Positions 1-15,429 of a stretch of DNA of 15,429 nucleotides are shown here, piece by piece. A program made the translations under genes and the position numbers. The notes under the pieces are model-generated. The model did no database searches. It worked only from the letters and a program-made list of their open reading frames with translations, and had not been told where the DNA came from. The stretch comes from a virus. The stretch covers positions 1-15,429 of IMG/VR virus record IMGVR_UViG_3300001477_000032. The stretch is one strand, 5' to 3'. Position 1 is the first letter of the stretch. The number at the start of each line of letters is the position of its first letter.

Positions 1-2722
1 TTACAGCTTCACCAGCTGTCCCACTTACTGTCTTTAAAGAAAATGCATGAGCGCCTTCTGCGGCTGTAGCAACACCGGCCTCAATAGCCTCTTCTGTAGT
101 CATAACTTTCATTAAACCAAGTGCGGTTGTCACAGTCACAAAGCCATTTTTAAGCATTGGCAAAGCAAATCCTAAACTAGTAATAGTCTGCAATAATTTT
201 TGACCAGTTGATAAATCTGCGTTTTTCCAAATACTTCCAAGATTTTGAACTTGTTGAATCGCAGTTGCTATTTGTGCAATACCGCCAGCTGCTTTAACAT
301 AACTTTCAACTTGAACAACATTTTGCATCCTGTCTTTTCCAGTTGTAAAATCACTAACTGACTTTTGTAACTATTGCTTTTTTAATTCAAGATTTTTTAC
401 CAATGAGGGGTCATTTAAAACACCTAAAAGCTCTTCATATTTTACTTTAATTTCATTTGAAGATGAAGAAACTACCTAAGATAATTTTTTAAAAAAAGCT
501 TCAAATGCTTGAGTCTTTTCTTCTTTAGTAAAATCCCCAGAAGATATTTTATTTTGTAATTCTTCCCATTCTATTTCTACTTGATCTAATGCTACTTTAG
601 CATCTTCAGAAAGGTGTTGAAAAGCATCTGTATCTTTTAAATCATGTAAAGTATCTAAAAATGTTCTAACTTCTATTTCAGCTTCGTTAAAAACGTCATC
701 AAAATTATCAATACCATTATTTTTTAATAATACATCAGCTCCAATAGAAGACTTCTTAAATAAATCTTGAACTTCTTTAATTTTTTGCTATAATACTTCT
801 GTTGCTTCAATGGGTTCATTAATTTTTTTTATAATGTTATCAATTTCTTGCTCATTATCTTTTTGATTTCCCAATAAATCTGTTAATGATATATTAGTAA
901 AATGCTTTAAAGGGTCTTTTACTGTATTTAATTTAGACTATATTGTCTGAATTTCATTTCCTAAGCTTTTAATATTATTAAGCAAAGCTTGCATTTCATT
1001 AAATTGCTCTGGACTCATGACCCTTGCTAAATCAAGTAATTGTTCTTTATTTTTAAATAAATCTTGACTAAATTGATCAAGTTCAGGAATTTTTCCAAAA
1101 TCATTTCTTGTAGCCTAAAGTGCTTGCTGAAATTGTCTTGCATTTTCTTTACCAATCTATAAATTATTAATAGTTGTACCAATGCTTTTAGCTATTTGTT
1201 CACTAAATACGGTTACTCCAATAGCCCCCAAAGTTTTTAATAATCCAATACCACCATCTAAACTATCAATAAAATTAGCTACAAAATCAGCCACATTAGA
1301 TAAAGCATCTGCAACTCCATTAATACTATCATTATCAATTAAGCTATCATATATATCTTCCATAGATGCTTTTAATTGATTTAAATGCGCAGCGGTTGAT
1401 TCCATATAAATATCTTGTTGCTGTTGTAAAGTACCTGCCGCATTTTGAGCAGTATTTAACGCTCTATTATATTCATCAAAATTATCAAATAAAGCAACTA
1501 AGTTAGAATACTGTCTTTGACCAGCCATCGTTTGGGCTAAAGAAACTTGTTGTTCACGAGTTAACTCTCCCCAACGGTTACCAATCTCTTCCATGACTTC
1601 GCCCATATCACGAAGATTGCCATTCATATCAAGGACGCTAAAACCTAATTCCTTCATTTTTCCAGAATAGTTACCAAGAGAAACTCCTTCTTCATCTATT
1701 CCAGCTTTAATATCAGAAATACGAGCATAAACAGTTCTTAATGCAGTACCAACACTCTATGGAGCTTGTTTAGTTGCAGAAATAATTGTTGATAATTGAG
1801 CAGCTAATTGCTATTCACTAACACCCATCATAGATGCGGCACTAGCAACTTTACTCATACCAGTACTTAATTCCTATAAATCTGATGCAGTTGTTGCAGC
1901 AATTGCAGCTAATCTATCAACATAAACTTCCGCTTCATCTGCACTAACTTTATAACCATTCCAAACCGCAGTTAATTGCTCAGAAACTTCCTCTGTAGAC
2001 TGTCCTGTTACATTCGCAGCTTTTAACGTAACTGCGGTTCTAGCTTCTACTTCCTAATCAGATAAGCCCTGTTGAGCATAGATTAAAGCAGCATTTGTAT
2101 AGTCAGTAGTAGATGTTCCTAAATTTTTAGCTGCATTATTAGCTTTTTCTGCAAAACGATCCATCTCATCCGCAGTTTTTCCAGTTACAATTCGAATATC
2201 ATTTAATGATCCATCTAAAGCTTTAACATATCCATAAGCTTGTTCTATGGAACGCGACATAGTATTGACTGCCCCTGAAGCAAGACTCCATTTTAAAGAA
2301 TTGCCTAAAGTTGTAGCCATTTTATCTAATATAGTATGACTCTATTTTAATTGGATATTTGTATCTGTAACATGAGAAGCTAAATTTCTAAATGCATTTT
2401 CTCCTGCTGTTCCACCTAATTTTAAAGTCTAATAAACTTGTTGAATTGAAGAATGAGATTCTTTTAAAGAATCTTTAAAAGCTTCAATATTAGTTGTATT
2501 TAATTTTGTATTAAAAGCTTGTCTTAAAGCTTTCTAAACATTCTATACCTATGTCTTAATTTTACTAAAATCTGCTGCTGCTTGTTTAGCATCAGTAGTA
2601 TTTATTTTCATTAAATCTTTAGTAGTTAATTGTTGAAGTTCTTGCAAAGATTTTTTTAACTAATTTAAACCTTGTTTCTGAACGTCAAAACCAACCGAAT
2701 ATTTTATTTGACCATCAGCCAT
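1..2722 (-). CDS. phage tail tape measure protein, N-terminal >900 codons (C-terminus lies beyond window start); readable only with TAG as sense codon
   Basis: Start ATG at 2722..2720, preceded on the minus strand by AAAGGAG (plus 2733..2739) with a 10-nt spacer and in-frame TAA codons further upstream. One frame runs from 2722 to position 2. Pieces of it appear in the ORF track as 2054..2320 and 1157..1657. All interruptions I checked are TAG (plus-strand cta in frame at 2660, 2549, 2543, 2534, 2429, 2342, 2054, 1874, 1811, 1757, 1157, 1115, 788, 476, 371). I hand-translated 2722..2281, 2053..1979, 1156..1019 and 787..479 and found no TAA or TGA. Sequence such as MATTLGNSLKWSLASGAVNTMSRSIEQAYGYVKALDGSLNDIRIVTGKTADEMDRFAEKANNAAKNLGTSTTDYTNAALIYAQQGLSD is typical of the TP901/TIGR01760 tape-measure core. 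The remainder is helical, Q/E/K-rich and low in complexity. Confidence 0.75.
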
Positions 2723-2833
2723 ATCCTTTTATCTCCTTTATATATTTATATAAATTTATAAAAAAATCTTCTTTATATATAATATAAAAAAACTCTATTT
2801 ATATTTATTACACTCCGACCGAGTAAAAATTTT

Positions 2834-2862
2834 TTGATAAATTATAAAAATTTTGATATAAT
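2834..2862 (+). promoter_or_regulatory. sigma70-type promoter (TTGATA, 17 nt, TGaTATAAT extended -10) driving the plus-strand central operon
   Basis: TTGATA at 2834..2839, 17-nt spacer, TATAAT at 2857..2862 with TG at 2854..2855. It lies about 58 nt upstream of the 2921 start, in the divergent intergenic region between the tape-measure gene and the phosphatase gene. Confidence 0.5.
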
Positions 2863-13252: not shown

Positions 13253-13267
13253 AAAAGGAGAATTTAT

Positions 13268-15429
13268 ATGACATAGAAATTATTTATTTAGAAAGTTAAA
13301 ACTCCATGTATAAACGCAGTAAATATAATTGGCGGTTATTTACCTAGTGTATTAATTGGACAAATGTGTTTATAGACTGGATATGGAGTTGGATATAATT
13401 GTGAAGTATTAATGCAGTGGAATAATTTATTAGGTATGAAAACCTAGTTATTAAATGATACTTGGAAATCAAATTATTGGGATGGTAGATCTGCAACTAA
13501 AAAAACTCCAGAGTATTATGGTTATCATACAACCATTACTGATTCTTTTAGAGTTTATAATAGTATTCAATAGTGCGCTTGTGACTATCTACAGTTTATG
13601 CGTGACGCAAAATATTCTAAAAATGGAAGCTATAAATATAGAGATGTTTTAACAATTAAAGATCCAACAGCTTTAATTACTCAAGTATCTAAACGCGGAT
13701 ATGCAACAGATCCAGCATATATTACTTCTGTAATGAGTATTATAAAAAAACATAATTTAACTCAATATGATAATCAAAAGGAGGTTAATGAGCCAATGAC
13801 ATTAAGATAGGCATTAGCAAAACTCGGCGTTAATTTAATTAATAGAATTAGTTATAATAGAGGACAAGTTCCTGCGCATAATGCAAATACACATCAATAT
13901 TTTGCTATTCATTATCTTGGGGTAAATGGATAGAACCCTGATTTATATGGTGGCGGATATGGTGGTCATTTTTATATAAGCAAAGATGGTAGATGCTATC
14001 AAGCTGCAGAAGTAACGGATAAACTTTGGCATGTAGGAGCTTCTTCAGGATTTTCATATATACATCCATATGCAAGAAATAGTAATACAATAGGAGTCGA
14101 ATGTGGGACATACACCGCTTCTGGAAGAAATAATGATGATGAAACTTGGTATTTTACAGAAACTACTCAAGTAACTGCCGCCAAGCTTGCAGCAGCTGTC
14201 TTAACAGTATATAACATCCCATTAAGTCATTTATTAAGACATGGGGATATTACTACAAAGAATTGTCCTTCTCCGCTAAAGCGTGATCAAGGAAAAGGTA
14301 GTAATTGGACTTGGGATAAATTTAAATCAGAAACAGAAAAATATATAAAACAATTAAAAGGAACATCTACTTTTGTTAAAACTCTTTCTTTAGGCGATAA
14401 TGGACAAGAAGTAAAAACACTACAAGAAAACTTATTATTATTAGGTTTTGTTAACTGTTCTTATTACAGTGGACAAAGAAATTTTGCCGATGGTAGTTTT
14501 GGACAAAACACATTAACTGCTTTAAAACATTTCCAATAGGCTAAAGGACTTTAGGTAGATGGTGTATATGGACCAAATACCGCCGCAGCATTAGATAAAG
14601 AAGTTATAGAAGTTAAAAAATCTAAATTAAATGTTACTCAAAAACAATTTTTAGAAAATGCAAAATTAATTGCACAAGAAAATAAAAAGAATGGTTTTTC
14701 TTATGGCAGCTCTGCATGTCTACCTTCTGTATATTCAAAAGATAAAGTCACTTCATGTGATAGATATGTTAATCAAGTTCTTTATAAATCAGGATTAAAA
14801 AATGTTGGAAATCGTGCTGTTGAATCTTTAAGTTCATATCTTGAAACAACAGTAAAAGCAGTTAGAATTAATGATATAAATCAAATTGCCGCAGGTGATA
14901 TAGTTTTCTTATCTGGCCATGTATTTATTGTTGGAAATAAAAAAGATAATAATAATTATGAAAGATACGATGCTGGTTCTGCAGATCGTATTAAATTACA
15001 AAACCAATATTCTAAATATAATTCTCAACCTTTCATTGAGCCTATTAATGGTTTTAAATATGCTTTAAGATTACCTTTTGTTCAGTAGAGTCCTACAATT
15101 TTAAAACAAGGTGATGAAGGTTCTTTTGTTAAAATACTACAACAAAAACTTATGAAACTTGGTTACTATATTGATCAAGCTGGGGCTGACGGTAAATTTG
15201 GACAAAATACTATGAAAGCTGTAAAACATTTCCAAACTGACCATAATTTATAGGTCGATGGAATCTGTGGACCGCTTACTCAAACAAAACTAAATGCTAT
15301 TTATGAAAAAATAAAATAGTATGATACTCCTTTATCTCACAATGATTTAATAAAATGGAAAACTTGTACTACAACAGATGAACTTAATCTAAGAAATGGT
15401 TCTTCAGTAGCGCATGAAATTATTACAGT
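13268..15429 (+). CDS. endolysin 2 (partial, at least 720 aa): GH73 glucosaminidase, then amidase_2, then PG_binding_1, CHAP-like peptidase, PG_binding_1 and the start of an SH3b-like domain; 12 in-frame TAG sense codons
   Basis: GGAG at 13257..13260, 7-nt spacer, ATG 13268. I translated all 720 codons by hand. There are zero TAA or TGA codons. TAG codons at 13274, 13289, 13373, 13445, 13571, 13808, 13931, 14537, 14552, 15086, 15251 and 15317. The GH73 region VLIGQMCL-x-TGYGVG...NNLLGMK...FRVYNSI...CDYLQFM...GYATDPAYITSV is collinear with FlgJ/AcmA ILAQAALESGWG...NLFGVK...FRVYSSY...SDY..LL...GYATDPHYA. The amidase_2 (PGRP) region is HQYFAIHYLGVNG...GGHFYISKDGRCYQAAEVTDKLWHVGA...NSNTIGVECGTY...LSHLLRHGDITTKNCPSP. 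PG-binding repeats are ALKHFQ-x-AKGL-x-VDGVYGP and AVKHFQTDHNL-x-VDGICGP. The CHAP-like module is SSAC...TSCDRYV...GDIVFLSGHVFIVGN. The C-terminal ELNLRNGSSVAHEII looks like the start of an SH3b domain. Confidence 0.8.

Follow-up and report, generated by a model that had tools for sequence, protein, structure and literature searches.

The stretch of DNA analysed here (the window) comprises 15,429 nt, positions 1-15,429 of the IMG/VR virus record IMGVR_UViG_3300001477_000032, and belongs to a tailed-phage genome of about 125 kb. At 99.99% identity it corresponds to positions 68,362-83,790 of the 124,598-bp ENA contig ERZ28612970 scaffold_240 (the parent contig), of which 42 of the 124.6 kb were inspected directly; the rest of the genome picture is drawn from relatives. 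In this study, we examine how this phage uses the amber codon TAG, which interrupts its tape-measure, holin, lysin, and flotillin-like genes, and which amino acid the codon encodes. A megablast search of the window against deposited phages gave no match. Judged by its sequence, the lysis cassette is of the kind typical of phages with Gram-positive (Bacillota) hosts, and two further pointers lead to the Bacillota, namely an amidase from a Lachnospiraceae metagenome-assembled genome with 49% identity and related tape measures in phages of Enterococcus, Bacillus, and Lactococcus. Many members of the clade presumably come from rumen metagenomes, to judge by their sample identifiers.

At the left end of the window, on the minus strand, lie the 5' 907 codons of the tape-measure gene (2..2722; PhageMin_Tail, E = 1e-31), which encodes 3028 aa in full on the parent contig. 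This frame contains 16 TAG codons and neither TAA nor TGA. Six of the TAGs fall within the first 135 codons (codons 21, 58, 60, 63, 98, and 127), and by codon count the sixteen occupy, from the 5' end, positions 2660-2662, 2549-2551, 2543-2545, 2534-2536, 2429-2431, 2342-2344, 2054-2056, 1874-1876, 1811-1813, 1757-1759, 1157-1159, 1115-1117, 938-940, 788-790, 476-478, and 371-373. In the stored gene table, the full 3028-aa protein, whose gene runs on to the left of window position 1 (L001 1-3467, L001 being a piece of the parent contig around the window), also has Hint/intein Pfam matches (Intein_splicing, Hom_end_hint, PT-HINT); an intein there would be unusual.

The other TAG-bearing genes lie on the plus strand. 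The SPFH/flotillin-like membrane protein (3733..5289, 518 codons, TAA stop; Band_7, E = 2e-24) has a single TAG at codon 3 (3739-3741). At the right end of the window, the holin gene (12232..12504, 90 codons; Phage_holin_1) has its TAG at codon 84 (12481-12483), followed by six more codons and TAA. Lysin 1 (12566..13252, 228 codons; PG_binding_1) contains three TAGs (12575-12577, 12707-12709, and 13013-13015) and stops at TGA. Lysin 2 (13268..15427; GH73, Amidase_2, and two PG_binding_1 domains) runs off the end of the window after 720 codons, is 757 aa long on the parent contig, and carries 12 TAGs with first bases at 13274, 13289, 13373, 13445, 13571, 13808, 13931, 14537, 14552, 15086, 15251, and 15317. 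None of these frames holds an in-frame TAA or TGA. Lysin 1 and the middle part of lysin 2 are paralogous (12566-13252 versus 14460-15060), and in both proteins PG_binding_1 is followed by a conserved Cys/His-containing domain (SCDRYV...GHVFI) without a Pfam match, which may represent a peptidase or binding module not yet described. Just to the right of the window (L001 16281-16286), lysin 2 ends in ACA TAG TAA, so that its last TAG is either a final glutamate or a stop backed by TAA.

An earlier note on this DNA, made from the letters alone, had counted at least 15 TAGs in the tape measure, six of them in its first 135 codons, together with one, three, 12, and one in the holin, the two lysins, and the flotillin and a TGA stop in lysin 1. 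These counts and the TGA stop are borne out, whereas its figure of more than 2,500 codons in recoded frames comes down to about 2,460. With TAA and TGA making up 5.6% of the trinucleotides of the window, the chance that a frame lacks both is 2.8e-23 for 907 codons, 1.3e-18 for 720, and 2e-6 for 228. The density of TAG in long TAA/TGA-free frames is 1.3-1.8%. A score of bases in long open reading frames (ORFs) per genetic code served as a first look only, as it is inflated by antisense ORFs. That the frames are real genes, as the note had held, agrees with the Pfam matches to a tape measure, Phage_holin_1, and the GH73, Amidase_2, and PG_binding_1 domains; these domains extend across the TAGs, and the holin match covers residues 1-87, beyond the TAG at codon 84. 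The stored gene calls of the parent contig also read through TAG, giving a tape measure of 3028 aa, a flotillin of 518, a holin of 90, and a lysin of 757. Moreover, the flotillin and holin TAGs recur in three to four independent assemblies (about 99% identity) and in one IMG/VR relative, and no called gene in the window requires TAG as a stop, as the note had also stated. It is thus virtually certain that this phage uses TAG as a sense codon and reads it with its own tRNA of anticodon CUA, described below.

Between the two TAG-rich regions lies a block of genes in which the codon is almost absent. A divergent intergenic region (2723..2908) separates the tape-measure operon from this plus-strand block and contains the best sigma-70-like site of the window (2834-2862; TTGATA-17-TATAAT with a TG extension), a consensus match only. 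The block begins with a metallophosphoesterase (2909..3667; Metallophos, E = 6e-15), followed by the flotillin gene with a terminator-like hairpin at its 3' side (5301..5329), an RlaP-like nucleotidyltransferase of the RNA-repair pathway (5381..6196; PF10127, E = 1e-5), and an 833-aa protein resembling the major vault protein (MVP; 6415..8916; Pfam MVP shoulder and Vault_3), behind which stands a terminator-like hairpin of 14 pairs (8933..8963). A 71-aa ORF (9023..9238) and an RNA ligase (9256..10488; PHA02142 OB fold and RNA_ligase in Pfam) come next, the latter with its own terminator-like hairpin (10495..10519), and then a 78-aa ORF (10581..10817 according to the parent-contig call; the longest standard-code ORF begins at 10449), a Cys-rich 94-aa ORF (10832..11116), an AAA_33/KTI12-type, polynucleotide-kinase-like kinase (11116..11616; Pfam), and a second metallophosphoesterase (11616..12137; Pfam and orthologues). 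Further plus-strand terminator-like hairpins stand between this last phosphoesterase and the holin (12179..12212) and 3' of the holin gene (12511..12536).

The ten central genes other than that for the flotillin (2909..12137, about 2,350 codons) contain no in-frame TAG. Direct reading shows that TAA ends all 11, as the earlier note had said; its further statement that all 11 are compatible with the standard code is true of ten, the flotillin being the exception by virtue of its third codon. The TAG-bearing genes contain 32 TAGs in 1945 codons versus one, the flotillin TAG, in 2866 codons of the central block (Fisher p = 4.5e-12). At the 24.6% share that TAG takes in the TAG-bearing genes, about 62 of the 253 Glu-or-TAG positions of the block would be expected to be TAG, and a single one is.

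This avoidance extends well beyond the window. Querying with the MVP-like protein returned 47 IMG/VR loci, on phage contigs mostly of 120-190 kb. The tape-measure orthologues in these loci have 33-69 TAGs and the lysins 4-17. Of the orthologues with 35-90% identity, none of 51 for the MVP-like protein, 31 for the RNA ligase, 39 for the kinase, and 39 for the phosphoesterase has a TAG inside the gene; each of 22 orthologues of the first metallophosphoesterase (2909..3667) is likewise TAG-free. The proposal that the RNA-repair block avoids TAG thus holds for the whole clade, with 30-50 orthologues per gene. Because the genes have resided for long in these genomes without acquiring TAG, the absence of the codon from the central block is kept by purifying selection across a large clade rather than reflecting a recent insert.

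The block is of interest in its own right as an RNA-repair-type cassette (2909-12137) of two metallophosphoesterases, an SPFH/flotillin protein, RlaP, the MVP-like protein, an RNA ligase, and the polynucleotide-kinase-like AAA_33 protein. Conservation of the MVP-like protein extends over at least 47 phage contigs, and the protein is 38-41% identical to ORFs of 462-735-kb records deposited as 'uncultured phage' (LR756500, LR756501, and LR756503); a vault-like or flotillin-like scaffold for phage RNA repair appears to be uncharacterised. The choice of glutamine codons is inverted in two of these genes, with CAG to CAA at 26 to 2 in the MVP-like gene and 8 to 2 in the RNA ligase, against CAA to CAG at 91 to 11 in the TAG-bearing genes. 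In the MVP-like and ligase genes, every other pair of A- and G-ending codons prefers A, and the leucine codon TTA is nearly absent.

The identity of the inserted residue can be approached at several independent sites. At codon 36 of lysin 2 (13373..13375; GQMCL-TAG-TGYG), the TAG aligns with the glutamate of AQAALETGWG in the FlgJ structure 2ZYC (entry 3K3T has alanine there), and all standard-code GH73 homologues examined have glutamate at this position (AQACLENGYG, AQTCQETGYG). We take this glutamate to be the catalytic general acid of GH73 and its exchange for glutamine to be the standard inactivating change. In the terminase, two relatives of about 90% identity (L386 and L363) differ by TAG in one and a sense codon in the other at 15 sites; the sense codon is for glutamate at all 15 and for glutamine at none, and at two more sites both have TAG. 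A holin orthologue has glutamate at the TAG position (AMTYEKPK), and the lysin and tape-measure columns agree by eye. Among 120 tape-measure homologues, the columns of codons 283 and 322 hold glutamate in 102 and 108 sequences, respectively, and that of codon 304 holds aspartate in 109.

A quantitative test gave the same answer. In a Codetta-like procedure, profile hidden Markov models (HMMs) were built from 112 lysin and 120 tape-measure homologues in a protein database, and the residues at TAG were scored against them. Over nine sites of lysin 2 the scores were -15.6 for glutamate, -21.2 for lysine, -22.4 for aspartate, and -24.3 for glutamine; over 13 sites of the tape measure they were -24.7 for glutamate, -30.3 for lysine, and -31.8 for glutamine. 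Glutamate is thus ahead of glutamine by 8.7 and 7.1 nats, respectively, and within the clade six further tape measures and three further lysins show this preference as well. As a control, the models returned glutamate at GAA and GAG, glutamine at CAA and CAG, and their own residues at lysine, aspartate, asparagine, serine, and alanine codons. In 20,000 resampling draws, none of the sets of true glutamine or true lysine sites reached the TAG score, and draws of true glutamate sites did.

Across the clade, we collected 625 recoded ORFs of at least 300 aa and scored TAG neutrally as X. In alignments of 75-99.9% identity, TAG is paired with glutamate in 52-54% and with glutamine in 15-17% of cases, glutamate exceeds glutamine in 108 of 111 loci, and the glutamate substitution profile is the best fit in every identity band. 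Codon usage in the window gives TAG about a quarter of the putative glutamate codons, since its TAG-bearing genes contain 32 TAG to 83 GAA and 15 GAG; TAG would thus serve 32 of 130 glutamate positions, more than GAG. On these alignments, the TAG positions do not match glutamine, as they would under code 15, and it is likely that the residue at TAG is mainly glutamate. The expectation of the earlier note, that TAG would be read as glutamine as in most such phages, is disfavoured by the catalytic site, the terminase, and the profile tests alike.

The note had also predicted that a tRNA with anticodon CUA would be found elsewhere on the element. Running ARAGORN on the same contig revealed one, of 74 nt, at positions 33,885-33,958 of the parent contig, about 34 kb upstream of the window and on the same strand (15509-15582 of the piece L445, which spans 18,377-39,171 of the parent contig and was reached by looking up P0242, a 264-aa early-module protein). 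Its sequence is CGCCCGATAGTGGAGTGGCTTAACACAGCGGTCTCTAAAACCGCGGATCCTGGGTTCGAATCCCAGTCGGGTGA; it folds into a cloverleaf, scores 62.8 bits with the Rfam tRNA model, and has an identical copy in a second assembly. It is a member of an array of 24 tRNAs (L445 11628-20366, contig 30.0-38.7 kb) around and downstream of a sigma-70-family gene (L445 11861-12712, 283 codons, no TAG). A 505-aa DUF2828/DUF7788 protein follows this region, and one array member is a tRNA-Asn(GUU) in the second assembly and a tRNA-Gln(UUG) on the parent contig.

Scans of other regions were negative. The window and the surrounding 21 kb contain no tRNA, and no CUA anticodon was found, even by relaxed ARAGORN, in IMG/VR relatives searched in 10-kb steps, among them the closest complete relative, of which 97 kb (70%) were covered. 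Rfam gave no tRNA in the IMG/VR relative stretches scanned, and a further 10 kb of metagenome sequence likewise had none. The idea of a phage without a suppressor was rejected once the tRNA array with tRNA(CUA) had been found on the window's own contig. A release factor was also sought, with no GGQ motif in the closest complete relative over about 97 kb, no release-factor Pfam match in the gene tables of L001 (21 kb around the window) or L445, and no class-I synthetase or release-factor motif in real frames of the regions examined. A single tRNA-Lys(UUU) was detected in the closest IMG/VR relative (IMGVR_UViG_3300021400_001206), within an early region of small genes (L439 17857-17932, about 58.2 kb). 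A tRNA-Lys(UUU) together with a ligase, kinase, and phosphatase cassette would recall, by analogy, how phage T4 counters anticodon nucleases that cleave tRNA-Lys. In the early hypervariable region of clade members, sequences of about 100 nt occur several times over and may be early promoters or terminators (L363 1875-1979; L367 449-549, 752-832, and 1155-1250; L439 12729-12971 and 15604-15798).

The tRNA(CUA) has a C1-G72 pair, the discriminator A73, a U11-A24 pair, and a GTGG/ACAC D stem, whereas the tRNA-Gln of this phage and of phage phAss-1, as well as the Gln-like suppressors of distant relatives and of phAss-1, have a GCC-AAG-GGC D arm, a weak 1-72 pair, and G73. By these features tRNA(CUA) would not be classed as a tRNA of the Gln type. 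Its D stem is identical to that of the phAss-1 tRNA-Glu(CUC), and A73 is common to phage Glu tRNAs. Scans of bacterial genomes for the D-arm pattern gave only chance matches outside tRNA genes. In the route that we propose, the suppressor keeps U35, which is common to the Glu, Gln, and amber anticodons, and would be charged with glutamate by a non-discriminating glutamyl-tRNA synthetase (GluRS) of the host. Lacking tRNA-Gln features, with its C1-G72 pair, A73, and a D arm unlike that of tRNA-Gln, it would escape conversion by the amidotransferase and so deliver glutamate. For the clade at large, the tRNA(CUA) appears to be neither Gln-type nor clearly Glu-type, and may follow this path of GluRS charging and escape from amidation.

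Taken together, these results show that TAG is read through in a subset of the genes of this phage, that its contig encodes a canonical-looking tRNA(CUA), and that selection keeps the other genes free of TAG; we propose that glutamate is inserted and, more tentatively, that the suppressor gates the genes that contain TAG. We give this reading as a whole a probability of roughly 0.75. By the same alignments, it is likely that a large clade of phages of about 120-140 kb uses TAG for glutamate with TAA and TGA as stops, a code that is not known to have been described for any virus or bacterium.

Several observations weigh against parts of this reading. The assignment to glutamate comes from comparative alignments, and the homologues behind the profiles hold glutamine at their own TAGs, although the resulting bias is toward glutamine and not toward glutamate. 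The protein collection that we queried stores the proteins of the clade with glutamine at each TAG, for example GQMCLQTGYG at the GH73 catalytic site, and because the collection translates TAG in this way, profiles and structures built from it inherit the glutamine. About 15% of TAG/sense differences are to glutamine, above the level for a pure glutamate codon; this residual signal is explained by the one-step route from CAG to TAG, and mixed decoding as glutamate and glutamine fits it too. The anticodon arm and variable loop of tRNA(CUA) match a relative's tRNA-Trp(CCA) at 20 of 22 positions, and blastn against phage records gives a tRNA-Trp first, at 79%. The ancestry and isotype of the suppressor, and hence its charging, are not readable from its sequence. 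Charging by GluRS without amidation is a tentative proposal.

The two explanations that compete most directly concern the residue. Ordinary code 15, with TAG as glutamine and the glutamate signal an artefact of Glu-rich proteins and of the exchangeability of the two residues, has in its favour that TAG-to-Gln is the sole amber reassignment reported for phages in the literature searched, that glutamine is the second commonest partner of TAG, that some conserved glutamine columns carry TAG in relatives (NRS-TAG-VPAHN against NRGQVPAHN and FG-TAG-NT against FGQNT), and that Gln-like suppressor tRNAs occur in distant relatives. However, composition cannot produce the signal when the same HMM procedure returns glutamine at CAA/CAG and glutamate at GAA/GAG. 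Added to this are the failure of all 20,000 true-Gln resamples, the 15 of 15 glutamates in the terminase, a phage suppressor without tRNA-Gln features, and a catalytic position at which glutamine would, as we take it from general enzymology, be the classic inactivating substitution; we therefore consider code 15 quite unlikely. Ambiguous decoding, in which Glu-tRNA(CUA) is partly amidated or charged by two routes at sites that tolerate either residue, accounts for the best-fitting mixture of about 0.8 glutamate to 0.2 glutamine in every identity band, and for the TAG score lying in the lower 3-7% tail of resampled true glutamate sites. It too is unlikely, as an excess of glutamine is expected anyway when CAG becomes TAG by a single transition, TAG stands at catalytic and near-invariant acidic positions, and the terminase comparison contains no glutamine.

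Two other explanations bear on the distribution of TAG and on its authenticity. If the central block were a recently acquired standard-code cassette, akin to a moron or defence island, its lack of TAG would call for neither regulation nor selection. The block is functionally self-contained (RNA repair, MVP-like protein, and flotillin), is bounded by terminator-like hairpins, includes genes of deviant codon usage such as the MVP-like gene with its excess of CAG and few TTA, and its MVP-like protein has no tblastn match in phAss-1 at E <= 1e-5. Nevertheless, its MVP-like, ligase, kinase, and phosphoesterase genes have orthologues of 35-90% identity in 30-50 related contigs, all without TAG next to tape-measure and lysin genes with dozens, and a recent origin is very improbable. 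That the TAGs are assembly or sequencing errors, or marks of decayed pseudogene copies, is suggested by nothing beyond the fragmentation of these genes under the standard code. The chance of this is negligible, given that the same TAGs appear in independent assemblies and in the 99.99% identical ENA contig, that frames of up to 3000 codons lack TAA and TGA, that domains are conserved across the TAGs, and that the cognate tRNA(CUA) is on the same contig.

The preferred reading, amber as glutamate in a subset of genes, raises the question of what governs the partition. TAG-free genes would be those whose products are required before the suppressor has built up, in its absence, or in very large amounts, and TAG-bearing genes would be gated by it. 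Within the window, the partition fits an early/late model, and the hairpins at 12179-12212 and 12511-12536, together with the flotillin TAG, would fit separately controlled units. Outside the window, on the parent contig and in relatives, the sigma factor, RNase H, gyrases B and A, and a 1322-aa replication protein are TAG-free, and the terminase (8-11 TAGs), the portal (three), and tail genes are TAG-bearing. Other genes indicate that the rule is not simply one of early versus late. The capsid-like proteins of 361 and 443 aa and neighbouring head proteins have no TAG, and TAG occurs in early or replication-module genes for a RecJ-like exonuclease (3-7), a GIY-YIG nuclease, and the 264-aa early-module protein. 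The view of the earlier note that recoding is confined to late genes thus fails genome-wide, and expression level or accuracy, rather than time, could be the selected variable. A need before the suppressor appears and a need for maximal yield or accuracy could both explain the avoidance, and the data do not separate them; we regard gating of the TAG-bearing genes by the suppressor as an even bet. The membrane-anchored GIY-YIG nuclease has 13 TAGs in 307 codons. Proteins of this type of about 305-324 aa (L117 15214-16137; L083 14105-15022; L066 15076-16050) have an N-terminal membrane segment and a coiled coil, show the highest TAG density seen (8-13 TAGs, up to 4% of codons), and are placed among TAG-free replication genes.

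The flotillin gene is a special case. Its TAG at codon 3 comes directly after the start region, behind a strong ribosome-binding site (AAAGGAG-N7-ATG), and is conserved in L001, L002, L003, L004, and L006. Beyond the closest relatives it is absent, the more distant orthologues being those whose N-termini are too divergent for a counterpart of the codon to be read. Without suppression, the gene could yield a Met-Ile dipeptide, or a truncated product from a TTG 27 codons downstream; as predicted from the sequence, the latter would be without most of the N-terminal hydrophobic segment. The codon has the look of a simple gate, dependent on the suppressor, on a gene that is free of TAG elsewhere. 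The earlier note had supposed that the flotillin, MVP-like, and RNA-repair genes can all be expressed without the suppressor, which agrees with the TAG-free RNA-repair block but not with the flotillin.

Stop-codon recoding with suppressor tRNAs and with subsets of genes left in the standard code is already established in phages. Only TAG-to-Gln and TGA-to-Trp have been observed in recoded phages (Borges et al., preprint 10.1101/2021.08.26.457843), glutamine at TAG was confirmed by proteomics in crAss-like phages (Peters et al., PMC9523058), and a survey of 2026 still equates TAG recoding with glutamine. No report of TAG as glutamate in a phage was found in the literature searched. The present phage resembles the crAss-like and Lak code-15 phages in that its in-frame TAGs cluster in structural and lysis genes, the phage carries a tRNA(CUA), a subset of genes is compatible with the standard code, and the host is presumed to use that code. 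It differs from them in the putative residue (glutamate, not glutamine), in its lineage, which is a separate one with a long tape measure and a lysis cassette of the Gram-positive type, and in that the parts examined showed no RF2 gene. As far as its sequence indicates, it has the features of amber recoding (interruptions by TAG only, a tRNA(CUA), and a TAG-free subset of genes) but would lack the defining feature of code 15.

A distant relative among named phages is phAss-1 (OQ749652; 366 aa of the tape measure align at 35% identity), of the proposed Phassvirus group, which has a 136-kb genome, a 3149-aa tape measure, and three Sup-CTA tRNAs (Babkin et al. 2023, PMC10607447) and is annotated with TAG as glutamine (PMC10607447). 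The two share a genome size of 125-140 kb, a tape measure of more than 3000 aa, a large tRNA array that includes tRNA-Sup-CTA, and TAG in terminase, portal, tape-measure, holin, and lysin genes (PMC10607447). phAss-1 differs in having three dissimilar suppressor tRNAs, one of them Gln-like. At 19 TAG sites of its tape measure that fall in profile columns (L053 4600-16400), the pattern is unlike that of glutamine sites (p = 0.003) and glutamate is best, although the signal is weak.

Outside the phages, parts of the proposed system have parallels. In the nuclear code of peritrich ciliates (NCBI table 30), both TAA and TAG stand for glutamate, in a eukaryote and genome-wide; a stop is reassigned to glutamate there as proposed here, whereas the present case would concern TAG only, in a subset of genes of a virus in which TAA and TGA remain stops. 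The E. coli amber suppressor Su7 is a tRNA-Trp with anticodon CUA that is mischarged with glutamine by glutaminyl-tRNA synthetase (GlnRS). The phage suppressor may be comparable in combining a Trp-like anticodon arm with CUA, its identity being set by a synthetase that reads U35 and not by ancestry; the likeness is one of analogy only, as the product proposed here is glutamate.

If TAG is indeed glutamate in these phages, the rule that phages reassign amber to glutamine only, which has been explained by the susceptibility of GlnRS, would not be general. This would point to GluRS as another route, perhaps one linked to hosts in which Gln-tRNA arises by transamidation. Translation with code 15 would then write glutamine at hundreds of glutamate positions, including catalytic residues, and the wrong residue would mislead structure prediction, enzyme mining, and endolysin engineering. 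The clade would also offer a natural system in which to study how viral genes are divided between two codes; here the tRNA(CUA) neighbours a phage sigma factor, and the flotillin gene, free of TAG elsewhere, has one at codon 3.

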